From: Eledone cirrhosa
Lineage: Eukaryota
Reading direction: 5' to 3'
DNA length: 64,000 bases
NCBI GenBank assembly: GCA_964016885.1
Contig: OZ024749.1
Coordinates: forward strand, 11,718,001 to 11,782,000
The notes beneath the pieces were generated by a model. The model was not told the origin of the DNA. It saw only the letters and a list, made by a program, of their open reading frames with translations, and did not search any database. Below are positions 6,836 to 40,958 of the stretch, piece after piece. Position 1 is the stretch's first letter. Each line of letters opens with the position of its first letter. The translations under genes were made by a program, and so were the position numbers.

Positions 6836-6934
6836 GAACAAATGAAACAGATTTTATATTGGAAGCCTCAGAACTTCACAGACAAAAGTATTTACCTCCA
6901 AACTATTTGAAAAAAATTCAAGAACAACCTAAAG
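6836..6934 (+). CDS. SHOC1: SHOC1-like visible exon 2 ([33 protein letters not shown])
   Basis: atcag acceptor, AAG|gtaatc donor, 99 nt, phase 1-1, open. Confidence 0.75.
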
Positions 6935-7080: not shown

Positions 7081-7170
7081 TTAATGCACATATCAGAGAC
7101 AGGTTTGGAACAAATCCTTTGGAAAACTTCCTTCTGATGAGATATAACTGTAAAAATGTCCAAGAGGAAA
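7081..7170 (+). CDS. SHOC1: SHOC1-like visible exon 3 ([30 protein letters not shown])
   Basis: tttttactttcag acceptor, gttagt donor, 90 nt, phase 1-1; PLENFLLMR resembles the LxNFxxLR motif I recall in SHOC1. Confidence 0.8.
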
Positions 7171-14537: not shown

Positions 14538-14700
14538 CATCATCATCATAGTCATCATTTAACGTCCATTTTCCACACTAGCATAGGTTAGAGGGGTCAT
14601 CCCATTTGAGGTAAGTTGGGTCAGGTGACCATGTCTTACTCATGTAGGACTGTTTCTGGCTAGATTTCTACAGATGGATGCCATTCCTAAGACCAACCAC
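14538..14700 (-). mobile_element. SINE 3' part with RTE-like (atg)n tail, running into the 48-bp array
   Basis: catcatcat...tttaacgtccattttcc and gatttctacagatggatgccattcctaa match the SINEs at 21452 and 28030. Confidence 0.75.
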
Positions 14701-15790
14701 TTTACAGTGTGGGCTGGGTGCCTTTTGTTGTGACACCTACACAACCACTTTACAGTGTGGGCTGGGTGCCTTTTATTGTGACACCTACACGACCACTTTA
14801 CAGTGTGGGCTGGGTGCCTTTTGTTGTGACACCTACACGACAGTGTGGGCTGGGTGCCTTTTGTTGTGACCCCTACACGACCACTTTACAGTGTGGGCTG
14901 GGTGCCTTTTGTTGTGACACCTACACAACCACTTTACAGTGTGGGCTGGGTGCCTTTTATTGTGACACCTACACGACCACTTTACAGTGTGGGCTGGGTG
15001 CCTTTTGTTGTGACACCTACACGACCACTTTACAGTGTGGGCTGGGTGCCTTTTGTTGTGACACCTACACGACCACTTTACAGTGTGGGCTGGGTGCCTT
15101 TTGTTGTGACCCCTACACGACCACTTTACAGTGTGGGCTGGGTGCCTTTTGTTGTGACACCTACACAACCACTTTACAGTGTGGGCTGGGTGCCTTTTAT
15201 TGTGACACCTACACGACCACTTTACAGTGTGGGCTGGGTGCCTTTTGTTGTGACACCTACACGACCACTTTACAGTGTGGGCTGGGTGCCTTTTGTTGTG
15301 ACCCCTACACGACCACTTTACAGTGTGGGCTGGGTGCCTTTTGTTGTGACACCTACACAACCACTTTACAGTGTGAGTTGGGTGCCTTTTGTTGTGACAC
15401 CTACACAACCACTTTACAGTATGGGCTGAGTGCCTTTTATTGTGACACCTACACGACCACTTTACAGTATGGGCTGGGTGCCTTTTATTGTGACACCTAC
15501 ATGATCACTTTACAGTGTGAACTGGGTGCTTTTTGTTATGACACCTACACAACCACTTTACCGTATGGGCTGGGTGCCTTTTGTTGTGACATCTACATGA
15601 CCACTTTACAGTGTGGGCTGGGTGCCGTTTGCTGTGACACCTACATGACCACTTTACAGTGTGGGCTGGGTGCTTTTTGCTGTGACAACTACACAACCAC
15701 TTTACACTGTGGGCTGGGTGCCTTTTGTCGTGACACCTACATGTCACTTTACAGTGTGGGCTGGGTGCCTTTTGTTGTGACACCTACACA
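14696..15790. repeat. 48-bp minisatellite derived from SINE interior, about 23 copies
   Basis: Unit accactttacagtgtgggctgggtgccttttgttgtgacacctacacg, present once or twice in unexpanded SINE copies. Confidence 0.95.
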
Positions 15791-15985
15791 AACACTCATA
15801 TTGGAATACCATATCATTTTATATATAAACTCCTTATATCGTTTCCTCAATATTAATATCTGAACTCTTTGGAACTCTTAAATGAATAGAAAATACTGTT
15901 AATATTATTGAGTCATCACATTTCATATAACAGTTTATTGAACATGATCAATCTGTCTATCTCTAATATCATATTGAGAAATATA

Positions 15986-16949: not shown

Positions 16950-17060
16950 GAAAAGACGAATCTTATTTTAAGAAAGAGACAATTGGTAAAACTGAATTAA
17001 ACCAACATACAGCTAAACATCACAAACTTAAAGAAGCTATTCTATTTGTTCCATTAACTG
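16950..17060 (+). CDS. SHOC1: SHOC1-like visible exon 4 (RKDESYFKKETIGKTELNQHTAKHHKLKEAILFVPLT)
   Basis: tttcttattttcatag acceptor, G|gtaaag donor, 111 nt, phase 1-1, open. Confidence 0.8.
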
Positions 17061-18395: not shown

Positions 18396-18507
18396 AGGTT
18401 GACTTTGCCTTTCATCACATAATACATAAATAATACTCATTTGTTGTGTTCATAGTTTTTGGCATTAATATATACTGGTTGGATGCCTTTCTTAACACCA
18501 CCACCAC

Positions 18508-19290: not shown

Positions 19291-19867
19291 ATTCTCTACC
19301 CCGCACCAATTTATTTGGAGTGGTAGCTCTCCTAGACGGGTTGCCTACACTATGGCTTACGGAGCCTCCGTCTGCCCTGTGTCTGTGCTGAGCAGAACTT
19401 GGTTTAACGTGCTATGTGCACAAGTGTTTAGCGTACAGCGCCAGGCATACATACTGGAAGGTGATAGATATAGGGAGGGTGGGTGGGATGGAAATGGCGA
19501 CTTCCTAGCCTCTGTTATTTTAAACACGGCTATTCTATATGAGCAATTTTTCCGTTACGAATAAATGCACATACACAACACACATATATATTAACAGCTA
19601 TATAAGTACAAACAGACATTAGTACTAGTACATATATCTATATATATATATATATAAATAAACATCGAAAGAAGGAAATTGACAATTTTTCAACTTATCT
19701 TATCTTCTCTACATCAAATAATCAGTCTAATGTAAAATTTTAAAGATTTCGCATGTTTGTTTTGAGTTGCTAGGAAATGGTGATTTCCTAGCCTCTGTTA
19801 TTTTAAACACGGCTATTCTATATGAGCAATTTTTTCGTTACTAATATATGCACATACACAACACACA

Positions 19868-21125
19868 TTAGAGAAGGATAAGCCACTATACTTAGCTTTT
19901 GTTGACCAAGAGAAGGCCTTTGATAGGGTACCCCGATCTGTCATCTGGTGGTCCTTAAGGAAACTAGGTGTAGAGGAATGGCTTGTGAGGACAGTGCAAG
20001 CTATGTACAGGGGTGCTGTCAATAAAGTGAGAGTAGGAATGGAGTTCAGTGAGGAATTCCAGATACAAGTAGGAGTACATCAGGGTTCAGTCCTCAGCCC
20101 GCTCTTGTTCATTATAGTCCTCCAAGCCATAACAGGAGTTTAAGACTGGATGACCATGGGAACTTCTCTATACTGACGATTTGGTTCTTATAGCAGAATC
20201 AGTAGAGGAGCTAGAGAATAAATTCTGGCTATGGAAACAGCAGTTGGAAGCAAGAGGACAGAGTAAATATAGCTAAGACAAAAGTGTTGATGAGTAGAAA
20301 AGAGGACAAAACTCTGATTCCGTCAGGGAAATGGCCATGTTCAATATGCAGAAAAGGAACTGGCATAAACTCTATAAAATGTACACAATGCAGATCTTGG
20401 GTACACAAGAGATGTAGTGGGATAGCAGGCAAACTAACAGGTAGGGAAAACTATGTATGCAGTAGATGTACAGAGAAATTAGACAGTAGTAATCACAGTG
20501 AGAGACACATTTTTCAAATGCAGGTGGCTTCTATAGAAGTGGTTGATAGCTTCCGGAACCTAGGGGATCAGATTAGCATGGGAAGGGGTGTCCAAAGGCC
20601 ATAGTATCTAGAATAAGGACAGGTTGGAAGAAGTTTAGGGAGCTGCTTCCTCTGTTGACAAAGAAGGGATGCCTGTGTGAGATATGCGATGCTGCATAGT
20701 AGTGAGACTTGGGTAGCAACTGCGGAGGATATGTGATGGCTGGAGAGAAATGAGGCAAGCATGCTCTGTTGGATGTGCAATGTCAATGTGCATGAATGAC
20801 CAAGCATAGATGAGTTGAGAGAGAAACTGTATAAGAGGGATAAGTTGTGGTGTGTGGGAGAGAAGACATGATATGGACATGTGATGCGCATGGAGGATGA
20901 CCACTGGGTAAAGAAGTGCCAAGAAATCCCAGTAGAAGGAAGACGCAGTAGAGGAAAACCATGAAAAACATGGGCAGAGGTGGGAGGTGGTGAGAGCAGA
21001 CCTCAGATTGCTGAAGCTCACGGTGGAGATGATAAAGGACCATGACAAGTGGAGAGATGCTGTGCTGAATAGGACCTGTCTCACCCTTGCAAACAGGGGA
21101 AAGTGGACGTAAAATGATGATGATA
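19868..21125 (+). mobile_element. 5'-truncated RTE-clade LINE (degraded RT with internal Cys/His knuckle, (atg)n tail)
   Basis: LYLAFVDQEKAFDRVPR, GVHQGSVLSPLLFIIV, LLYTDDLVLIAES; stops and frameshifts; tail ggacgtaaaatgatgatgat. Confidence 0.9.
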
Positions 21126-21451: not shown

Positions 21452-21790
21452 CATCATCATCATTTCATTTTATGTCCACTTTTCCCTGCTTGCAAGGGTG
21501 GGACGGGAACTGATTCTGGCTTGATTTCTACAGCTGGATGCCCTTCCTAACACCAACCTCATTTACAGTGAGTGCTGGGTGCTTTTTTGCCGTGGCACCT
21601 CCACGACCACTTTGCAGTGGATTGATAGGGACCCCAGTCCCTATCATCTCATTTCTACAGCTGAGTAAACTGGAGCAATGTGAAATAAAGTGCCTTGCTC
21701 AAGGAAACAACACATCACCCGGTCTGAGAATTAAACTCATAACCTTTCGATTGCAAGGCCAATGCTCTAACCACTAAGCCATGTGCCTCC
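21452..21790 (-). mobile_element. Apparently complete SINE: tRNA-like head, central domain, RTE-derived 3' tail
   Basis: Head ggaggcacatggcttagtggttagagc...; tail matches LINE end at 21082-21125; near-identical copy at 28030-28415. Confidence 0.85.
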
Positions 21791-22315: not shown

Positions 22316-22561
22316 CCAACTTGCTCGCTGTTTCAAAACATATTTACTTATTATATATATATGTTAGAGAACAAGGATAATGGAGAAAACTATGTTCTGG
22401 ATGTTTCCTTTCCTTAGTTGTAGCTATTTCACTTTACCAGTATCGCTAATCCTTATCATCATTATTCTCTTCCATGTAACATTGCACTTTGTAAGCATTG
22501 TACAGCTAACTTTTCATTTATTATACACAATTTCGTAACTCTCCAATTCTTTATGAACAAG

Positions 22562-22729
22562 ACGAATTTGAACAATTGATTAAAGAACTGGCAACTGCTG
22601 CAAAACCATTTATAACAGTATTAAATACCTCAGGAGATATCTGTTTTGAAAAATCATTTGAAGAACTCCAGCTAGATATGATTGCATTTTCCCTGAAACA
22701 GAAACAGTTTGAAAACAAGATGGCAAAAG
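22562..22729 (+). CDS. SHOC1: SHOC1-like visible exon 5 ([56 protein letters not shown])
   Basis: 168 nt, phase 1-1, AAG|gtacaa donor, weak aag acceptor; resembles recalled SHOC1 segment AAASPIL...FDQTRFLLKEQEK. Confidence 0.8.
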
Positions 22730-23643: not shown

Positions 23644-24084
23644 CCACTGTAAAGTGGTTGTGTAGGTGTCACGACAAAATGTACCCAGTACACTGTAAAG
23701 TCGTTGTGTAGGTGTCACGATAAAAAGTACCCAGTACACACTGTAAAGTGGTTGTGTAGGTGTCACGATAAAAAGTACCCAGTACACACTGTAATGTGGT
23801 TGTGTAGGTGTCACAACAAAAAGTACCCAGTACTCACTGTAAAGTCGTTTTGTAGGTGTCACGACAAAAAGTACCCAGTACTCACTGTAAAGTGGTTGTG
23901 TAGGTGTCACGACAAAAAGTACCCAGTACTCACTGTAAAGTGGTTGTGTAGGTGTCACGACAAAAAGTACCCAGTACTCACTGTAAAGTCGTTTTGTAGG
24001 TGTCACGACAAAAAGTACCCAGTACTCACTGTAAAGTGGTCATGTAGGTGTCACGACAAAAAAAGCACCCAGCCCACACTGTAA
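23644..24084. repeat. 48-bp minisatellite, same SINE-derived unit as 14696-15790 in opposite orientation, about 9 copies
   Basis: Unit cactgtaaagtggttgtgtaggtgtcacgacaaaaagtacccagtact; followed by SINE 3' part and gatgatgat tail to ~24247. Confidence 0.93.
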
Positions 24085-24398
24085 ATGAGGTTGGTGTTAG
24101 GAAGGGCATCCAGTTGTAGAAATCAAGCCAAAATCAGTTCTGTATGGCAAGACATGGTCACCTGATCTGGCATTGCCTACAACAGGACAATATGTCTAAT
24201 CCACGCGAGCATGGAAGAATGAACGTAAAATGGTGATGATGATGATAACATTTAACACATCAGTTTTATGTCAGATATCAGCTGTGTCCTCACCTGGAGA
24301 ATGTATGTGCTCTGCCAGCTTTAAAATGGCCAAGAAACACTGATATTATGGCGCTTTCACAGCTCTACCATCAGCTACAAAGAGAACAGATATATTAG

Positions 24399-24973
24399 TT
24401 AACTCTTTAATGTTCAAACCGGCAAAAACCGGCCAGAATTCTCTACCGTTTTCTGTTGAAACTGGCTGTAACTTGTCACTCAAACTGATGTTAAGGTATT
24501 GTTCTCAAAATAAATACTTTTAAAATCTCATAGATTCGATATTATGTGAGATAAAGCCTTTACCATGAAAATATAATAGTATATATAGAGTAATGTGAAT
24601 GTTATGTGAGGTAAAGCCTTTATCATGAAAATATAATAGTATATGTAGAGTAATGTGAATGTTATGTGAGGTAAAGCCTTTACCATGGAAATATAATAGT
24701 ATATATAGAGTAATGTGAATGTTATGTGAGGTAAAGCCTTTACCATGGAAATATAATAGTATATATAGAGTAATGTGAATGTTATGTGAGGTAAAGCCTT
24801 TACCATGAAAATATAATAGTATATATAGAGTAATGTGAATGTTATGTGAGGTAAAGCCTTTACCATGAAAATATAATAGTATATGTAGAGTAATGTAAAT
24901 GTTATGTGAGGTAAAGCCTTTACCATGAAAATATAATAGTATATGTAGAGTAATGTGAATGCTAAAGGGTTAA
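24399..24973. mobile_element. TTAA-flanked piggyBac-type MITE-like element containing a 60-bp x7 internal array (24541-24960)
   Basis: Ends TTAActctttaatgttc and gaatgctaaagggTTAA are imperfect inverted repeats; 60-bp array directly visible. Confidence 0.6.
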
Positions 24974-24994: not shown

Positions 24995-25548
<554 letters not shown>

Positions 25549-26305: not shown

Positions 26306-26442
26306 GATCTTTGGAGAATCTCAGAAGTAAACTGTTTAAAGTTAAAAAGGATTTCCTGCAACATAATATAACCCATCCTAAAATAACAACAATATGTAAA
26401 GAGATTGAAAAATGTCTGATTCAGCATTTTATAGATGGCAAG
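26306..26442 (+). CDS. SHOC1: SHOC1-like visible exon 7 ([46 protein letters not shown])
   Basis: Pyrimidine tract plus aaaag acceptor, AAG|gtgaga donor, phase 1-0; HPK motif followed by ILIII in the next exon (helicase-C-like). Confidence 0.85.
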
Positions 26443-26624: not shown

Positions 26625-27540
26625 CCTGATGGGATGACAGAGTTCTTTGAGATATTGGCTAGATAGCTCCAGAGAGAAACATTGGCTCCCTACCTTTTTA
26701 TCATTGCAGTGGACTATTGTATATGCCTTGTGTTGGAGAAACACCAAGACTCTGGCTCAGAGCAGGAGAGTTAAGGCGAAAAAGATATCAGATGCTGAAT
26801 TTGCTGATGACATAGTTCCGGTGAAAAAAACAGTGAAGGAAGCAGAGGATGTAGGAGGTGGAGACTGTCAATGAGTTTAGGGCTGAGAAAGAATGAGATT
26901 AAGACGAAGTGTCTGGTAGAGAACATTAAAAAGCCAGAGAAGATTATGAATGTAGGCGGGAAGCCGCTAGAGTTGGTTGAGGACTTCCTGTATCTGGGAG
27001 CAAAGATTGGGACACAGAGAATGATGTGGTTGAGAGGAAGAGCAAAGCCTGGGCAGTGTGTCACAGTTTGAGATCAGTGTGGAAGTCGGACCTTTGTAAA
27101 GACCTGAAGATCTGTCTCTTCGTTGCTACAGTGGAGTCTGTGCTGCTGTGACGGATCTGAGACTTGGACACTGATCAAGAAACTCACTCAGATGGTGGAT
27201 GGGAGCTACATGAGAATGCTGAGGATGACTCTGAACATTAATCAGTATACACTGAGGAAGAAGAACTCAGAGCTGTATGGAAGCCTCCCAAAAGTGACAC
27301 CGAGGAGACTGAGGTTAGTTGGACATGCTCACCGACATTCATAGTTGACACTGCACTCAGTGCTCCTGTGGGAGGCCCTGCATGGAAACACTATAAGAGG
27401 GAGACTGAGGTTGACATATGTTGATGGCCTAAGGACAGACACAGGTCTCTGGGAGACGCAGGACATAGTGGCGATGATGAAGGACACAGACTGCTGGAGA
27501 GAACTTGTCCATGGATCTTGGGAATTTTTCCCACCCTAGA
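26625..27540 (+). mobile_element. Degraded RTE-like LINE RT 3' fragment
   Basis: EFADDI, LELVEDFLYLGAKI, GSETWTLIKKLTQMVDGSYMRMLRMTLNI, RRLRLVGHAHRH; frameshifted. Confidence 0.85.
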
Positions 27541-28929: not shown

Positions 28930-29054
28930 ATACTGATCATTATTGAGAAAGATATTTCTGGCTTGATATTAACAATTTTAGACCAAATTATATATGGTAC
29001 AAACATGAAGGCTGAAATTCTACATTCTTCCTCTAAAGACAATAATTATTATAC
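28930..29054 (+). CDS. SHOC1: SHOC1-like visible exon 8 ([42 protein letters not shown])
   Basis: tttttctag acceptor, gtaagt donor, phase 0-2. Confidence 0.85.
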
Positions 29055-29290: not shown

Positions 29291-31680
29291 AATGGGCATT
29301 TCTGCGTGTAAAAAAACAAAAACGGAAGGTGTAACAAAAAAAGAAACAATGAAAAATTCCCCAATAGGGGGGAGACTTCCGAGGGACATTCGTGGAGAAA
29401 GCCCATTAAAAAAGCCACGGTGACCCTGACCACCAGGGCAAGTGCCCTCTCCCAGTTTTCGACCTTCAATTTACAGACGCATACTCAGAGTAGGCCCATT
29501 CACTTGGGCCATGCTTGCATCTCTCACCATTTTTTCAACAAAATGCTGGGAAGAGAGCCACAAGGGCTAACATGAAGAAAAACATTCCAGACGGCACAGA
29601 ATGGTGCAGGATGATACAAAGTGGGTTTTGGCCATGTAAAAAAAGGTTATAAACAAAAAGATGGAAATATCAAAAAAAAATTCAAACAACAAAAATTCCC
29701 CAATAGAGGGGAAACTTCCGAGGGTCACTCGTGGCGAAAACCACACAAAAGACCACAGCCACCCTGACCACCAGAGCAAGCACCCTCTCTCAGTTTTCCT
29801 ACTCCTCAGTCTACAGGTACATACTCAGAGCGGACCATACTCACTCGGACCAGACTCGCTACTTTCACCCACCTTTCAATAAACTTACTAGAAGACAGCA
29901 CTTGCCTCTCCACCCTGATTTTCCTCTTCAAGTGAAATTTGAAAAAGTTAATCAGGGATTGGCTGGAGAGGAAAGTGTCCATCTTCAACCCTTTCAATGT
30001 ACTTTTCCCCAGCTCATCTCCTTGATGGATCTGCAGTCCTGGATCAGGAAAAGACCGAAGGATAGCGCTTGGAAGCTGGACTGTCTCCAAGCGCTCAGTG
30101 CCCTCTACCAGCTAGGCACTAGTATCGGTGGAACATCCACCTCTGCGTTCTATAGAGGGCTAGTGGAGGGGAAGAGTGGGAGACCCTGGGCATCGAAGAC
30201 GATCAGCTGTTCGCTCTCCTTGAGAGAACTTTCAGCACGGGGCTATGTCGAACAGTTGCTGTCGCATGTAGAACGGATCCGGTTATCAACTGAGTGCACC
30301 ACAATCTCTTTTGCCATGGCCACCAGGCAGATGAAAACTGCCTGCCCTTCCTCCTCTTTAAAGGAGGATGGCGGGGCTATCTGCACAATGGACTCAGTTG
30401 ATAACCGGATCCGTTCTACATGCGACAGCAACTGTTCGACATAGCCCCGTGCTGAAAGTTCTCTCAAGGAGAGCGAACAGCTGATCGTCTTCGATGCCCA
30501 GGGTCTCCCACTCTTCCCCTCCACTAGCCCTCTATAGAACGCAGAGGTGGATGTTCCACCGATACTAGTGCCTAGCTGGTAGAGGGCACTGAGCGCTTGG
30601 AGACAGTCCAGCTTCCAAGCGCTATCCTTCGGTCTTTTCCTGATCCAGGACTGCAGATCCATCAAGGAGATGAGCTGGGGAAAAGTACATCTGGCAAACG
30701 GTGACCACATCTGTTCACTGTTGAGGAAGCACCAGAGATGTCACAGCTTCAGCGCATGTTTGCGCATCATCAGCCACGGCATGCCTAGACCTCCTTGCAA
30801 TGGGTGCTGACAGCAGATGGATTGTCTGACCAAGGGAGCATGTCCCCGAACCAGACCCCTAGCAATTTAACCAGTCCTTCCATCCAGCACCCCACGACGC
30901 TGTCAGACGGCATGGCTTGCCTCTCCAGGTACCGAGCTGCAAGCCCACTGACTTTTCTTGGTTTAACTTTACTCCTGTCACTGCTTCATATTCCTTGAGA
31001 GCGGTGCCGAGCATCTGGACATCTCCGGTGCTTGACACCACCACGGTGACGTCGTCGGCATAAGTCGATACGGATCTCCCACATCCCAGTTCATGTGGGA
31101 TGCCTCTCATCACCACCAATTTGTGCAGTAACGGCTTGAGGGCCAATATGTTTAAGAGCGACGAGAGGGGACAACCCTGGCTGACCGAGCGCATGATGCT
31201 GAATGACTGTGACAGATGACCGTTCACCCTCACAACTGAGCAGATGTCCCTATGCATTGCAGTGATCCAACCCCTGAAAATGGGCCCAAAACCAGCTGCC
31301 TCGAGGATCGCCGCCAAGTATCGATGGTCAACCCTATCAAATGCCTTAGATTGATCCAAGTTGATCAGGGCCCCGCCCGTACCAGATTCTTTAACCACCC
31401 TCTCATCAGCCATGACATTCCCAGCCCTCCACATAGCGGGTGTTGACAGCAAATCGACTGCGTGACCATCGGAACGCGTCCCTTCCACAAAAAGCAAAAG
31501 ACCAAATGCTCCAACGCAGTCAGGCGAGGCTTAGGACAAGGCATGGCGGTCAGGTGATAGTAGATGATGGACGCGATGTACACGATCACCACCTCCGCTC
31601 GACCTTTCAGGGATAGCGTTCACTCTTACCACAGAGCAGATGTTATGGCAGTGATCCAGCCTCTTAAGACGGGCCCACAA
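29290..31680 (-). mobile_element. Rearranged L1/Tx1-clade LINE fragments (at least two diverged copies) with internal inverted duplication
   Basis: ORF 30859..31497 has LINLDQSKAFDRVDH, VSQGCPLSSLL, YADDVTV, YEAVTGVKLNQEKS; FCFLWKGR and GGLGM thumb motifs; duplicated 3' ends. Confidence 0.85.
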
Positions 31681-31689
31681 CAACAAACA

Positions 31690-31900
31690 AGAAAGATCAG
31701 AGCCTTGGTGGAAGAAACGACTGAATGGCCAAATCAAGGAAATGAGAAAAGACATTGGAAAACTTGTGTCTTTGCTGAATGGGACATTACAAAACATAGA
31801 CACTAAAGATAGATTGAAAATAAAATATAAAACTAAGGGAAAAGCACTGTGTTATCATAGAGGAACTGAAGCAACGCATTGTAGCAAAAGGTGCAAGCTA
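31690..31900 (+). mobile_element. Short R4/R2-like non-LTR retrotransposon N-terminal fragment
   Basis: PWWKKRLNGQIKEMRKDIGKL and, after a frameshift, IEELKQRIVAKGA. Confidence 0.55.
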
Positions 31901-33010
31901 GCTGATAAACAGCGTGATTTTTGCCCCGGATGCAGCGCAACGATGCAAATATTCACACTGCGGCAGGTCTTTGAGAAATTGTGGGAATGTTGCCAAGTAG
32001 CATATTCTTGTTTTGTTGACCTTGAAAAGGCATATGACTGCAGATATGAAATGTTATGCAGGAGTATGGGATCAATGGTCAGCTTCTTGTTGCCCTGATG
32101 TCTATACGAATGTCCAAGTATTTGTGTTTAGATAAATGGTGCTAAATCGAAACCATTCAATGTGGGAGTTAGACTCCACCAAGTGTTCACATTGTCATCT
32201 CTCCTGTTCATTATTTTCATGAACAGGATTGACATGTGCAACCAGGTTGCAAATGGTATCATCACTGATGAGTGTAAAATCAATTGACTGGAATTTGCAG
32301 AAAATATAGTATTACTTAACTCAGTTCAAATCCCGCCGAGGTTAACTTTGCCTTTCATCTTTACGGGGGTCGATAAAATAAAGTACCAGTAATGCAATGG
32401 GTAATTGCTGCCCTTGCGCCAAATGTAGAAACAATTACTTAACTCAGCAGAAGATGATCTTCGACTTGCACTTGATAGGTTTGATGTTGAGTGTTGCATG
32501 GCTGGAATGAAGATCAATGCTGTGAAAACTCAGACACTCGTCCTCTCAAGGAAACCTGCGCAGTGCACTCTACATGTGAATGGAGTTCCACTGAAGCGAG
32601 TGATGGAAGGCAAGAGGCTGAATTAAGTACAAGAATTTCAGGAGTTGGTGCAGTAATGCTTCAACATTCAATAATCAGATGAAGGGAGGTAGGCTTGGAT
32701 GTCAAACTCGATATCTTCAATTCGGTATTTGTGCCAACCCTTATTTTGGGTAATGACTGAAAGAATACGATTGCAAATACAAGCAGCCGAAATGGGGTCC
32801 CTTCAAAGGGTCTTTGGAGTAATATTACTGCACAGAGTGTGTAGCTCAGATATCAGGGTGTCACTTCAGATAGAGCTGCTACTTCTCTGGATTGAGAGAG
32901 CAGAGCTCCGATACTACGGGCATGTGGTTAGAATGTCTCAGGAAAGAATTGTTGGACAGATTCTACAGACAAAACCAACTGACAGGAGACCCAGTGGGAA
33001 AAGAAGAATG
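31900..33010 (+). mobile_element. Degraded RTE/BovB-like LINE RT fragment interrupted by a SINE
   Basis: QIFTLRQVFEKLWE...CFVDLEKAYD; RLQIQAAEMG...LRYYGHVVRMSQERI. Confidence 0.85.
32325..32433 (+). mobile_element. 5'-truncated SINE with 14-bp target-site duplication
   Basis: TSD attacttaactcag at 32311-32324 and 32434-32447. Confidence 0.85.
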
Positions 33011-33382
33011 GTTTTAGATAAATATAAACACTTTAAAACAAATAGTTTTGTATCATAGATTCAGGGCTGGTTCAGGGGGATTGATATAAAAAAGAGGGTT
33101 TAGACAATAATGAAAAGAAGTTGGGAGTGGAGGAGGAAGGTTAAGAATTTTTCTGAAATATGGTTTTAACAGATCTTCTACGATATTCATAGCTGATGTT
33201 TGGAATATAACTTAGCGAGATTCTTACATAAAATTATGATGGAATATAAATTTAAAAACAAGCAGTTTTGTATGATAGAATGAGGGTGGTTTCAGGTAGT
33301 TTGGTATCAAAAGGGTTATATCAATATTGAAAGAGAAACAAGGAGACAATACAATGTGACACTTAATTTTATTTCATTTTAG

Positions 33383-33582
33383 ATTGCGAAATACAAACAG
33401 TGATATCATCATTATAGAACAACATTTGATATCACAGGAATTCCCATGGCATATCTTTTCTTTAACAATTCAATATGAATACAACAGAAGTTCCAATGAT
33501 TTCTTCAAAATATGTCAACTACACAATATTACCTTTTTTGCTCTCCAAATAACTCAGGAGAGGGAATTAAAGAAGACCAATG
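33383..33582 (+). CDS. SHOC1: SHOC1-like visible exon 9 ([66 protein letters not shown])
   Basis: tttcattttag acceptor, TG|gtaagt donor, phase 2-1; FPW..FS..I.Y resembles recalled SHOC1 DFPWSNFSFVVEY. Confidence 0.9.
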
Positions 33583-33768
33583 GTAAGTTAAGACAATGGT
33601 AAGTTAGGGCAGTGGTAGGTTAAGACAATGGTAAGTTAGGGCAATGGTAAGTTAAGGTAGTCATAAAGTAAGACAATGGTAGGTTAAGACAGTGGTAAGT
33701 TAAGACAATGGTAAGTTAAGATAATGGTAGCTTAAAACTGGTAAGTTAAGACAGTGGTAAGTTAAGAT
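33575..33768 (+). repeat. 16-bp tandem repeat of the exon 9 splice donor (aagacaatg|gtaagtt), about 11-12 copies
   Basis: GT at 33583, 33599, 33615, 33631, 33647, 33679, 33695, 33711 and further. Confidence 0.9.
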
Positions 33769-33802
33769 AAATTGTGAATAAATTAACATATGTATAGTTA
33801 AC

Positions 33803-33951
33803 AAACATACCATGAACATCACTATAGGACACCAAACATACCATGAACATCACTATAGGACACCAAACATACCATCAACATCACTATAGGACACCAAACA
33901 TACCATCAACATCACTATAAGACACCAAACATACCATCAACCGCACTATAG
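33803..33951. repeat. 31-bp minisatellite, about 5 copies
   Basis: Unit aaacataccatgaacatcactataggacacc. Confidence 0.9.
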
Positions 33952-34305
33952 GAGACAAGGGCTAACTCTTAACATCCTCTACAACATTATTAAGATAGTA
34001 TTTCGAACAACTTCGAAATACTAACAGGTTTTGTGGCACTAGCACTACCATTTTACAGAATACCCTCTGTAAGGTGGTCGTACTGGTACCATGATGAAGG
34101 GTACCAAGTAAACCCTATCAGGTGGTAATGTTGTAGTTACAATAAATTTCTCAGAGTACACACTGTAAAGTGGTTGGTGTTAGGAAGACCATTCAGCTAC
34201 ATAAACCAGATATATAAGCAAGATATGATCCCCTAGCTAGTCATACCTCAGTATGTGACAAACCATCTAACACATGCAAGCATGGAAAATAAATGTTAAA
34301 TAGTG

Positions 34306-34750
34306 ATCATCATCATCATCATCATTTTACGTCTGCTTTTCCCTGCTTGCAAGGGTTGGATGGGTCCTATTCAGCGCAGCATCTCTCCACTTGTCACGGT
34401 CCTTTGTCATCTCCGTGAGTTTCAGCGATCTGAGGTCTGCTCTCACCACCTCCGCCCATGTTTTTCGTGGTCTACCTCTACTGCGTCTTCCCTCTACTGG
34501 GACTTCCTGGCACTTCTTCACCCATAAGTCATCCTCCATGCGCATCACATGTCCATACCATCTCAGCCTTCTCTCCTGTACACCACAGCTTATCCCTCTT
34601 ATACCCAGTTTCTTTCTCAACTCGTCTATGTTTGGTCGTTCACGCACATTGACATTGCACATCCAACGGAGCATACTTGCTTCATTTATCTCCAGCCGTC
34701 GCATATCTTCTGCAGTTGCTGCCCATGTCTCACTACCATGCAGCATCGCA
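34306..34750 (-). mobile_element. 3' fragment of the same RTE family as 19868-21125
   Basis: ORF 34327..34746 MLHGSETWA...RRLRWYGHVMRM...RGRPRKTW; (atg)n tail. Confidence 0.9.
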
Positions 34751-34819
34751 TGATGATGATGATAAATAGTTTAAAATAAAGAGGAGCAGTTTCAGGAAGT
34801 GTAGTACAAAAAGGGTCAA

Positions 34820-35095
34820 TGGTTTAGTAAGGAAGAGAAGTTCCACCCTTCCATCTGTGATGGTTTCGTAAGGAAGAGAAGTTCCTCCCTTCCATCTGTG
34901 ATGGTTTATTAAGGAAGAGAAGTTCCACCCTTCCACCTGTGATGGTTTAGTAAGGAAGAGAAGTTCCACCCTTCCATCTGTAATGGTTTAATAAGGAAGA
35001 GAAGTTCCACCCTTCCACCTGTGATGGTTTAGTAAGGAAGAGAAGTTCCACCCTTCCATCTGTGATGGTTTATTAAGGAAGGGAAGTTTCACCCG
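34820..35095. repeat. 41-bp minisatellite, about 7 copies
   Basis: Unit tggtttagtaaggaagagaagttccacccttccatctgtga. Confidence 0.92.
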
Positions 35096-35139
35096 TGACT
35101 GGTGGAAAATTAATATTATTAACTTCTATTTATCCCCAG

Positions 35140-35251
35140 CCTTGCCTGCGTTCTCTGAGAAGAATCCTGGCTTGAGCAATATAACCATCAAAATCATTAT
35201 TTCTGAAAGTCTTACAGTTAACAAACAACTATTGCAGTTATTGGAAACAAG
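35140..35251 (+). CDS. SHOC1: SHOC1-like visible exon 10 ([38 protein letters not shown])
   Basis: tatccccag acceptor, AG|gtaagt donor, phase 1-2; resembles recalled SHOC1 ASEGLLNTPDILQLLESNYNI. Confidence 0.88.
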
Positions 35252-35316
35252 GTAAGTAGTTAGCAATATAAACAGTAATAAATGTGGGAATTGTTAAAAT
35301 GTTGCATAGAATGCTT

Positions 35317-35480
35317 TGTGGTATTCCAGTTCTCTATGGTATTCCAGTTCTCTGTGGTATTCCAGTTCACTGTGGTATTCCAGTTCTCTATGGTATTCCA
35401 GTTCTCTGTGGTATTCCAGTTCTCTATGGTATTCCAGTTCTCTATGGTATTCCAGTTCTCTATGGTATTCCAGTTCTCTG
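35317..35480. repeat. 18-bp minisatellite, about 9 copies
   Basis: Unit tggtattccagttctc(t/c)(a/g). Confidence 0.92.
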
Positions 35481-36230
35481 TGTTTTCTGAATTCAAAACC
35501 CACTGAAGTCAACTTTGCCATTCATTCTTTCAAGATCAATAAAAAACAAATTACCAGTCACTTATGATTGCAGAGCAAACTTCTTAACAATTTAACTATG
35601 TTGTGTCCACCTGATCATGTTAATATGTGTAATGCATGTAAGAATTATCAACACATTGGAGTGGGTGCTTTGTGGTATCTATTTCATGTCTATGCATTGT
35701 GAATTCAAATTCCACTTCCTGTTATTGTGGAAAAAGTTGCTCCAACCAGGAGTTGTGATCAACAGATAGTATCAACAATAGAAAGATGAATTTCTTTGGT
35801 CTGAGCTCAGGATTGGCTTCTTTCCTTTTTTTTAATATGTTATATTGTAAATGTGGTTGGTGTTGAGAAGGGCATCCGGCCATAGAAACCAAGCCAGAAG
35901 TAGTTCTGTATGAGCAAGACATGGTCACCTGATCTGACTTGTCTTACAGGGGAACAACTCATCTGACCTATGTTAGTGTGGAGAAATGGACATTAAACAA
36001 TGATGATGATGACTAAATGTTCTTTTTGAGGCGATGTTTTAAGACTGGATATCCTTCCTGGTACCAAACCTTTTAGTTACCTTTTACAACATGAAAGGAT
36101 ATGGTGTATCTATTCTAAACCTGATACACATACTATACTGTTGTGTGTTGTATTTTCTATAAATATAAATAATATTTTTTTCTTATAATAATCCATACTT
36201 TTTTGTTATTGATTTTTTTTTTATAACCAG

Positions 36231-36458
36231 ATATAATATTGTAACCATTGGCGTGATGTTTGAACAGATTTTACCATCTAAAATATTTCAATTTGTTGAT
36301 ATTATTGTTGATGAAAAGAATTCAATTGTATTTTGTACTACATCTCATCTGGAAGAGAAAGCTTTATTAGTCTTAGTATTTCGACTGATGGGTATCAGTT
36401 TGAAATATTCCACATGTTATGTACTTATCACAATTTCACCTGATTCTACAGAAAGTTT
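36231..36458 (+). CDS. SHOC1: SHOC1-like visible exon 11, XPF/ERCC4-like domain ([12 protein letters not shown]...[12 protein letters not shown]...[16 protein letters not shown]...ESL)
   Basis: Long T tract plus ccag acceptor, gtaagt donor, phase 2-2; IIVDE and LSLKYSxCxVI are SHOC1-like. Confidence 0.9.
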
Positions 36459-37030: not shown

Positions 37031-37109
37031 GAATTCTGCTATCAAGAACATTTCTAAATTGCTGGCTTCTCTGACCAATTTCAACATCAATGGAGAATGT
37101 ATGTTTAAG
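37031..37109 (+). CDS. SHOC1: SHOC1-like visible exon 12 ([26 protein letters not shown])
   Basis: ttttag acceptor, AAG|gtaaga donor, phase 2-0. Confidence 0.85.
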
Positions 37110-37599: not shown

Positions 37600-40440
37600 C
37601 CTCATAAACAGGATGTGTCAGGTGACCAACATCATCCTTTTGTTCCAGCAGTAGCTGGAGAAAACAATCTACAATTGTTTCGGTGTTTTGCTCAAATGTT
37701 TACATTGATCATCTTTGCCAGGGTTTTCGTGAGGGGCCACATTTCTGCTCCATAGAGGAGAAGGGAGAGGACCAATGCTTTGTAAATATGGAGTTTCATC
37801 TTTTGGGAGATTGAGCAATGGCACCAAAGGGGCTTCCATAGGGAGTGCATGACCCCAGTGGCCAGGCCACATCTGCAGTTGAGGTTTGGGGTCAGATCTC
37901 CATTGCTTGGTGACAGTTGAGCCTAGGTAAATGAAGGAACTGACAAACTCTATGATGTCAAGGCCAATATGAAGCGAAGGTGGACCTGGGCCATTGCTGA
38001 CATCAGCTTTGTCTTCACCCAGCTCACCTGAAGACCAAGCTTTGATGATTCCTCCCAGTGTATGGTCTGTACATCTCTGAGCTGATTGATGGAGTTGCTG
38101 AATGGGGAGGGGTGGAGGTGGGGTGTCATCTGCGTACTCCAGGTTAGTAAAGTGGTAATTCGTGAAGGTAATGCCAGAAACTCACTCACAGACATTGGTC
38201 ATCAAATAGTCAATAGCCACGCAGCCCTGTCTGATAGGGAACCAGTTGGTGTCCTTCACATTCACCTGCACGCAGCTCTCAGCACTGCTATAGAGCCATT
38301 GGAACAAGGTGGTGATCTTGGGTGGCCTTGAGGTTGATGAAGGTGACATAAAGGCAGCGATCTCTACAGAACTCTTGAGATTTTTCTGATAATGAGGCGA
38401 AGGGCAGAAATGTGTCAGCGTTGGATCAATTAGGCATGAATCCAGCTTGTTGTGGGCGACATCCACTTCTGATGGCTGGAAGCACTGTTGAGTAGGATCT
38501 TGGTGAAGATCTTGCTTGGGATGGAAAGAAGAGTGATACGCCTGGGGTTGCTGCAGATGAGTTTGTCACCCTTCCATTTCTAGAAGGGGAGTATAATGCT
38601 TCGGGTCCAGTCATTTGAAAGCTGCTCTGACACCCATACATGGTTGATGATAGGAGTGAGCCACTGGATCATGTTATCTCCACCCGCCTTCAACATCTCC
38701 ATGGTGATAGTGCAGATTCCAGGTAATTTGTGATTTTTTAGCTTCTTCAGGATGGCTCTGACTTCATCAGGAGCGACTGGATTGAATCTTCAGGAGTTGG
38801 CTACAACCATGTCTGAGGTTGGGATTAGGCAGGGATCAATTGGAACGGATGGGTGATGTAGAAGAAGGCTGAAGTGATCTTTCCAGTGTTCAAGGCAGGT
38901 GGTCTCAATGGTGATGACGTTGCCATTGGTATCCTTCACCGGGCACTGGTACGGGCTCTGCAGAGTATGTTGAATACCTGGCTGAGGTTGTTGTTCCTTG
39001 CCACTGTCTCCAGGTGCTCAGCTTCTTTCGCCCAAAACTTCTTCCAGTCATCCGTGATAGCCTTGTTGCGTATCCAGTTGAGCCAGTGGTATTCATTTAT
39101 GTCACCGTGCTGGTGAGCCTTGTGGCAACAGTTAGTTATCTCCAGCATCTGTGGTGAAATCCTGGGTCATTTGCGAAGAGGTCTTGAGTTTACCAGGATG
39201 TTGCGCACAGGCTGGTTGATACTTGGTTTAAAGACCTTCCCAGTTGTTGGTATCATCCTCAGTCAGGACGCTGAAACAATTGGTGAAAGAGAATACAAAT
39301 GTAGGGGTGATGTTGGGATCGTGGAGACAAGATGAATCAGGGCTGGGCTGATACTTAGTGTCAGGATCCACTTGCAATTTCAGCCTCAGTGTCACAACCA
39401 GCAACCAATGATCAGTATTGCCTAGTTAAGCTCCCTTGTAGACCTGTTGGTGATAAATTACCTTTAGTGGCAGAGGAGATGATGATGTAGTTGATTGCCT
39501 TCTGGGTATAACTGTACCAAGTCCAGTGATAGATGAGTTTACAGGGGAACCAGGTGTCGGCGATACAGAAGTTGTTGTAATGGCAGAGGAGCAGCAGGTG
39601 GTTACCTTTGTCATTGGTGGAGGGGTTGGCGAAGGTTGTGCTAAAGAGCTGAGTCTACAATGGGTCGGTTGGAGGGAACCTTGCGGAAGAAGAGATGATA
39701 GATGATCATGATATGATGTCATGGGGTGGGATTTGTTCTAAAACCTGTTGAAAGTGATCATAGTTGTCATCCTTGACAGTGTCTTCTGTGATGTCTGTAG
39801 GGGCATAGGCAATGACGATAGATATCTTGCCGTGTCAGTGGAGAGAACAGGCGGACAGCACATGGTCACTCTCCGAGTTCTAGCTGACTAGGGACTTGCA
39901 GACATACTTGGGCATGGCCAGTGCCATGTCGCAGAGACCCGTCCTATCCTCAGGGTCACTCCAGATGAGGCAGTGGTCTCCCGCGAAGAATTCCCCATGG
40001 CCAGGCCAGTGTGTCTTGCAAAGTCTTGACAATGTGATGTTGCAGTGGGATAGCTCTTGGGACAGAAGGGTAGCTTCTCCGGGGTGAAGTAGAGACAGGA
40101 TATTCCATGTAGCAACACAAATTTTATGGCACAAATCAATTTCTTATTGGTGAAGGGCAGGCAGGGGTCAGTTCTGATGTTGGGCAGTCTGGTTTCTTTT
40201 GGTTGTTTCATAACATTGGTGTTCTCTTCTGGACGGGTTGTTGGCCCTCTGCAGAATAATGATGGGGCTGCCATCTTGGTGGCAAGTGAACACGGCGCAG
40301 GTCACTGTTGGTTTGGAACCTCCCCGGGTCACCGACTTACCTAGGGTGGCCCTACCAGTAGCAAAGCTCCAGATAGTAACATACAGATTTACGGAACACA
40401 CAAGCCCCCTCCTTCCTCACCACGGCAAGGCCAGACACAT
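37600..40440 (-). mobile_element. Long degraded RTE-clade LINE (5' UTR, APE endonuclease, RT)
   Basis: ICVATWNILSL...ELSHCNITL...THWPGHG (APE N-terminus); RT pieces such as KLGLQVSWVKTKLM and FIYLGS; many stops and frameshifts. Confidence 0.85.
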
Positions 40441-40454
40441 TGCAAAGTATTATT

Positions 40455-40823: not shown

Positions 40824-40958
40824 GTTTTAATTTCTAATGGTATAGAAGAAACAGCAGTACTTATACGTAAAGTCTGTGAACTTTGTCTGATGAGATCAAT
40901 GACTGATACCCAGAAGGAATGGCTTGATCGTGATTGGTTGAAGGAAGATATTTCACAG
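40824..40958 (+). CDS. SHOC1: SHOC1-like visible exon 13 ([45 protein letters not shown])
   Basis: T-rich tag acceptor, CAG|gtatat donor, phase 0-0; closely resembles recalled SHOC1 LIIAPGVEATALIIRQIAD...EWLDKSWL; gene continues beyond the window. Confidence 0.92.

Follow-up and report, generated by a model that had tools for sequence, protein, structure and literature searches.

The donor of the ninth exon of a SHOC1-like gene in Eledone cirrhosa lies within the first unit of a minisatellite, which extends into the intron and repeats the exon-intron junction there eleven times. The array is a real donor-spanning minisatellite, a structure already known from several human genes. Its origin was probably neutral, and it is probably tolerated through a preference for the most upstream donor, with nonsense-mediated decay (NMD) as a backup. 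The array adds an invertebrate example to a handful of human genes. It also provides a natural test, outside mammals and at a spacing of 16 nt, of the rule that the most upstream donor wins, in which every wrong choice would truncate the protein. All coordinates refer to the window, i.e. the whole stretch of 64,000 nucleotides that was analysed.

The array at the exon 9 junction

Tandem Repeats Finder delimits the array to 33573-33767, with a period of 16, 12.2 copies, 77% matches and the consensus AAGACAATGGTAAGTT. Its identity to itself at lag 16 is 0.70, whereas 5000 shuffles, compared over lags 10-40, reached 0.50 at best. Segmentation resolves twelve head-to-tail units, namely unit 1, which has the sequence AAGACCAATG|GTAAGTT, and eleven intronic decoys.

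33573-33589, plus strand: unit 1, 17 nt, consisting of the last 10 exon bases and the first 7 intron bases, with the authentic donor inside
33590-33763, plus strand: units 2-12, eleven decoy copies in the intron, each one C short of the exon copy
33600-33602, plus strand: TAA in the reading frame of the exon, which stays in the mRNA with any decoy from unit 3 on
33764-33780, plus strand: 3' flank of the array, which starts with AAGA like unit 1 and weakly resembles the unit
33802-33953, plus strand: separate 31-bp minisatellite with 4.9 copies and 95% matches, starting about 35 nt past the donor array

The length is 16 nt for units 2-10 and 12, and 14 nt for unit 11. Unit 12 is followed by a partial unit of 4 nt, AAGA, at 33764-33767. 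The in-register GT is kept in ten of the eleven decoys (it is lost in unit 6), and TG|GTAAGT in seven (units 2, 4, 5, 8, 9, 11 and 12). Four decoys, with exon ends at 33598, 33630, 33646 and 33710, do not differ from the true donor between -3 and +8. These four also tie with it, at a score of 10.2, on a matrix derived from the window's 12 other donors. An earlier reading of the window, made from the sequence alone, had described about 11 copies of the junction with a 16-bp period, many of them with the consensus TG|GTAAGT, and both statements agree with the segmentation and the count of decoys. The 3' flank is either the short repeat that seeded the array or a decayed 13th unit. The 16-nt unit has no further match with up to 3 mismatches in the window. 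The predicted RNA fold of the array is not special (z 0.28, 124 of 200 shuffles as stable), and a search of 32500-36000 against Rfam, with E up to 1, gave no match.

The host gene

The array lies in a gene whose part in the window reads as follows.

2745-40958, plus strand: host gene span, 13 exons in the window, 616 codons, stop-free
2745-2975, 6836-6934, 7081-7170, 16950-17060 and 22562-22729, plus strand: exons 1-5
25026-25160, 26306-26442 and 28930-29054, plus strand: exons 6-8
33383-33582, plus strand: coding exon 9 (window count), 200 nt, phase 2 to 1, with an open frame and fitting phases
35140-35251, plus strand: exon 10, the acceptor partner, 112 nt, after an intron of 1557 nt
36231-36458, 37031-37109 and 40824-40958, plus strand: exons 11-13

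All 13 exons match the ortholog P0001 in tblastn searches, and the model is 77-78% identical to the Octopus bimaculoides protein XP_014775618.1 and 68% identical to an Argonauta hians protein, values that point to an octopod as the most likely source of the window. The 13 donors counted in the sequence-only reading are thus confirmed for the window by the exon model and the ortholog match. A provisional acceptor of exon 5 at 22442 was dropped in favour of 22562; the seed test described below gives the same results with either. The match to the ortholog begins at residue 84, and tblastn placed none of its first 83 residues in the window. Therefore, upstream exons must lie outside the window, and the number of exon 9 is a window-relative one. 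In this respect the earlier reading has to be qualified: the exon exists and has its donor at 33582, but its number holds for the window only.

Exon 9 itself matches the Pfam family PF17825 (DUF5587) with an E-value of 3.2e-6, and residues 449-516 of P0001 in tblastn. Three of nine exons tested match PF17825, in the order of the profile, and the orthologs P0001 and P0002 match it at E 1e-38 and 3.5e-32. An exhaustive protein search with exon 9 gave four matches, of which the two long ones are the O. bimaculoides and Argonauta hians proteins mentioned above. A word-index homolog search with exon 9 alone had 3 candidates, none of them with an E-value up to 0.001. In the Atlas, 95% of the members of one cluster carry DUF5587, and this cluster bears the name 'protein shortage in chiasmata 1 ortholog' (score 0.85), which we treat as a lead to the identity of the host gene. 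The likeness to SHOC1 is based on DUF5587 in the exons and on this cluster name, for a gene that is known here only in part. We therefore call the gene SHOC1-like and regard its meiotic function as predicted. SHOC1 (SHOC1/Zip2) is described as a meiotic XPF-like crossover factor. ERCC4 look-alikes in the Atlas (scores 0.77-0.79) are leads only. The only matches of a PDB sequence search, to RecU at E 0.35-0.44, were taken as noise, and a literature search for DUF5587 found no paper.

Choice of the donor

The authentic donor is the GT at 33583-33584, so that the exon ends at 33582. With this donor, the junction aligns without gaps to ELKKTS-AFPVFSSKNPGL of the O. bimaculoides ortholog, and only the first donor gives a gap-free alignment. 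This suggests that the 17-nt copy in the exon is the ancestral form, from which the 16-nt unit derives. The Argonauta model is shorter by 6 residues at the junction, and the predicted Octopus vulgaris protein P0005 lacks exon 9 and the next exon and is thus uninformative, so that one of three orthologs speaks for the junction. Exon 9 and the next exon (33383-35251) together measure 312 nt and as a pair preserve the frame, and the residues missing from P0005 correspond exactly to this pair. Their absence could be due to a model error or to real skipping.

Use of the first decoy, at 33598, adds 16 nt, shifts the frame and leads to a stop in exon 10. The ten later sites that were tested all retain the TAA at 33600-33602, including in-frame ones such as 33630. 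A full-length protein from any decoy is therefore excluded by the predicted reading frames, with a premature stop for all 11 sites tested. The first donor is thus presumably the one in use. Transcript reads could mislead at this junction, as the diagnostic C is preceded by only 5 bases and aligners are reported to produce false splices between repeats (PMC10632439). The frameshift by copy 2 and the TAA had both been pointed out before and are correct. The suggestion that downstream decoy donors are tolerated gains indirect support from the frame of 616 codons, from the ortholog match with the first donor only and from human precedents.

Comparison with human genes

Human minisatellites with a first unit across an exon-intron boundary are described for F7, CBS, 6-16, LMNB2 and PDGF (PMC1557585). 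According to this source, the pseudo-sites of the 37-bp VNTR in F7 intron 7 are identical and functional, yet unused, and the most upstream donor is chosen. In LMNB2 and PDGF (intron 4), the authentic donor is used alone, and in CBS intron 13 and intron 2 of the interferon-inducible gene 6-16, two pseudo-sites are also used. The list given there contains no gene with two donor-spanning arrays.

The array in the octopod gene has the features of the F7 IVS7 type, namely a minisatellite-sized head-to-tail array, a first unit that spans the junction and a donor that is repeated downstream. As in F7, the most upstream site keeps the frame. However, the F7 unit comprises 4 exon and 33 intron nt and occurs in 5-9 near-identical copies, whereas the first unit here comprises 10 exon and 7 intron nt, the spacing is 16 nt, the 12 units are more decayed, and the example comes from an invertebrate and is known as sequence only. 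CBS, 6-16, LMNB2 and PDGF resemble it in having the donor repeated 10-25 times downstream of the true one (PMC1557585). CBS and 6-16 differ in that two pseudo-sites are used, which here would end in a premature stop. Our literature search, which mostly covered sources other than subscription papers and supplements, found neither a donor-spanning repeat in cephalopods nor a genome-wide test for enrichment at donors.

Origin and decay of the array

The array may have arisen by slippage or unequal-exchange duplication between two AAGA copies, one at the exon end and one at positions +8 to +11 of the intron, which would have copied the junction. One C would also have been lost at this step. Further slippage or conversion would then have multiplied the 16-nt unit and mixed its copies, which decayed afterwards. 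At the sequence level, the coding exon and the first donor were left untouched by these events, and any decoy would bring a premature stop. By analogy with F7, the spliceosome would mainly pick the most upstream donor, and leakage to the decoys would be cleared by NMD. The presence of two donor arrays in one gene (the second is the 35-bp satellite described below) is probably explained by a very high local rate of minisatellite seeding, together with the survival of duplications on the donor side.

In the Haber-Louis model, minisatellites originate between flanking short repeats of 5-10 bp (PMC6947457). Here, AAGA stands at both ends of the amplified motif. The exact match of 4 nt falls short of the 5-10 bp, which counts somewhat against the neutral reading, and the unit that was amplified has 1 nt less than the seed. 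Among 5150 AT-rich intron positions, 0.8% have a match to the 4-nt prefix AAGA, and 1.4% reach an alignment score between flank and unit as high as the one observed; a decayed terminal unit would look alike. A further point against neutral tolerance is that a downstream, intron-proximal donor can win in other contexts (PMC5585400), and that CBS and 6-16 use two pseudo-sites each (PMC1557585).

Variants are shared between non-adjacent units (A7G in units 3, 6, 8 and 12, A13G in units 3, 7 and 10), the pattern to be expected if conversion or unequal exchange had been at work. There is no higher-order periodicity in the array, with a mean unit distance of 3.2-4.0 at lags 1-6. Since changes are spread evenly over the donor core (-1 to +6, 8 of 77 cells) and the other positions (14 of 99, Fisher p 0.50), selection on the decoys is not visible. 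Exon-derived and intron-derived positions do not differ either (p 0.26). Selection for or against decoy donors thus remains undetected in these unit-variant counts, which make for a small test. Among the 15 arrays in the gene span, the 16-nt one is the most degenerate, with 77% matches compared to 85-98% in the others. Such a value would suit an array that is older or has stalled. The sequence-only reading had suggested that it could be a small early stage of the same process that formed the satellite, and this is not supported. In both donor arrays, the unit reaches 7-11 nt into the intron and ends close to the U1 footprint. We consider this uninformative, as a 16-nt unit can hardly end elsewhere.

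Seeding of repeats at donors

The sequence-only reading had also raised a mutational bias at exon-intron boundaries. In the form considered here, tandem duplications would be seeded preferentially at or just past the exon ends of a germline-transcribed gene, for example through R-loops, pausing of the polymerase or repair where exon and intron meet, and the donor arrays would be the extreme cases. We asked how often random placement would do the same. Each of 15 arrays was collapsed to one unit and placed at random, leaving the coding sequence intact. Microsatellites with a period below 10, matches of about 2-3 copies and the two arrays upstream of the first exon were left out. The masks were hand-drawn around LINE-like blocks, GC-rich blocks and self-repeats, and are partly a matter of judgement; one of six stretches scanned matched a reverse-transcriptase profile, with 29 bits against a cut-off of 29.6.

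Without masking, 0.25 donor-spanning seeds are expected, and the probability of two or more among 15 is 0.024. This speaks against a purely neutral placement. With repeats masked, the probability rises to 0.062-0.082. When acceptors are counted as well, it is 0.087 unmasked and 0.21-0.26 masked. Two donors against no acceptor would be seen with a probability of about 0.25 if the odds were equal. A mutational bias at donors is thus not established. The earlier reading had named a lack of enrichment over the minisatellite background as the counter-argument. The masked values (P 0.06-0.08) roughly amount to such a lack in this gene, although a single gene gives the comparison little power.

The seeds do cluster near exons. 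In collapsed coordinates, eight of the 15 (those of the arrays at 24542, 25228, 29148, 33573, 33802, 34819, 35319 and 40933) lie within 100 nt of an exon, six of them on the donor side. The expectation is 1.9 without masks (P 0.0002) and 3.2 with LINE-like blocks masked (P 0.007); with all recognised repeats masked, 8 of 12 compare to 4.2 expected (P about 0.025, up to 0.026). The mean log distance downstream of a donor is also small against the masked nulls (P 0.007-0.022, the two donor arrays included), which again is not what neutral placement would favour. However, the threshold of 100 nt was picked post hoc and for one gene, and the masked probabilities are 0.15-0.27 at 50 nt and 0.19-0.43 at 400 nt. 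When the two donor arrays and the nearby array at 33802 are removed, P is 0.013 unmasked and 0.10-0.19 masked, and single-copy insertions that escaped recognition would weaken the signal further. Given the clustering near exons, two donor-spanning seeds have a probability of 0.16-0.17 and are unremarkable.

Transcription-coupled asymmetry has a signature, A>G above T>C on the sense strand. Over 12 arrays (3802-35479), A>G variant types indeed exceed T>C types on the sense strand (12 of 153 versus 4 of 162, p 0.039); the 35-bp satellite was left out of this count, and the arrays at 25228 and 29148 are not part of it. The excess, of which the 16-nt donor array itself supplies 4 of the 12 types, possibly reflects asymmetry of germline transcription. 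Both the exon clustering and the A>G excess are leads only. On balance, we regard a mutational bias as the explanation in this gene as rather unlikely, and the general form of the idea, that new tandem repeats in octopod genomes are seeded preferentially at or just behind the donors of germline-transcribed genes, as unlikely too. If it were true, minisatellites and even multi-kilobase satellites would repeatedly be born at exon ends, and the spliceosome would have to pass over ten to hundreds of near-identical donors. A genome-wide bias on the donor side, if confirmed, would link the origin of satellite DNA to splicing or transcription, for which one gene is insufficient.

Alternatively, the decoys could be regulatory. 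Leakage into unproductive, NMD-bound isoforms, or extra U1 binding, would tune the level of SHOC1, with the copy number as the dial. The four decoys that equal the true donor, and the unproductive products predicted for every decoy, would suit this role, as would the use of pseudo-sites in CBS and 6-16 (PMC1557585) and the description of splicing-associated tandem repeats as common in humans (PMC10078293). However, conservation of the donor core does not exceed that of the other unit positions, no array in the gene has decayed further, and the pseudo-sites of F7 are silent (PMC1557585). A regulatory role thus appears quite improbable.

It is very improbable that the array is a precursor of intron gain or recursive splicing, with the junction copies offering new donor-acceptor pairs. 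Recursive splice sites and intron-gain duplications have an AG|GT junction after a polypyrimidine tract. GT and AG dinucleotides are found in each unit, and unit 6 contains one AG|GT (33656/33657), but the repeated junction is TG|GT, the array is 68% purine and lacks a polypyrimidine tract, and all extensions run into a stop. Finally, although the window is very repeat-rich, an assembly artefact can practically be dismissed, because 22 of 176 unit cells are changed in interspersed patterns not expected from read-stacking, the array has unique flanks, and gene and ortholog are collinear.

Other repeats in the window

The second donor array in the gene is the 35-bp satellite.

40933-64000, plus strand: 35-bp satellite, seeded on the donor of the last exon, with 26-27 exon nt and 8-9 intron nt

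The donor GT is kept in 617 of the 624 units counted (CAG|GTATAT in 407, CAG|GTGTAT in 190). Its junction, TTTCACAG|GT, has the AG|GT form that is also the form of recursive splice sites, unlike the junction of the 16-bp array. Kinship of the 16-bp and 35-bp units was considered and rejected, with 1415 of 2000 shuffles scoring as well, in agreement with the earlier view of unrelated units and independent amplification.

The 15 arrays in the gene span have unrelated units, and in BLAST searches two of 16 array seeds matched a dispersed repeat. Since the arrays differ in unit and so few seeds match such a repeat, seeding is not sequence-specific. Two 48-bp arrays on opposite strands (14696-15796 and 23645-24093) match a dispersed SINE-like element, which has copies near 21560, 28140 and 34160. 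By eye, an 89-bp array at 18496 appears related, but it gave no BLAST match. Decayed LINE-like fragments at 19850-21125, 26630-27530, 29300-33000 and 37600-40450 are free of minisatellite arrays; among them, only 19913-20140 matched RVT_1 (E 1.1e-6). A long self-matching block at 29997-30690, within a GC-rich LINE-like insertion, looks by eye like an inverted duplication centred near 30390-30400. Two further degenerate arrays, 1-839 and 922-1571, lie in the intron upstream of the first exon in the window.
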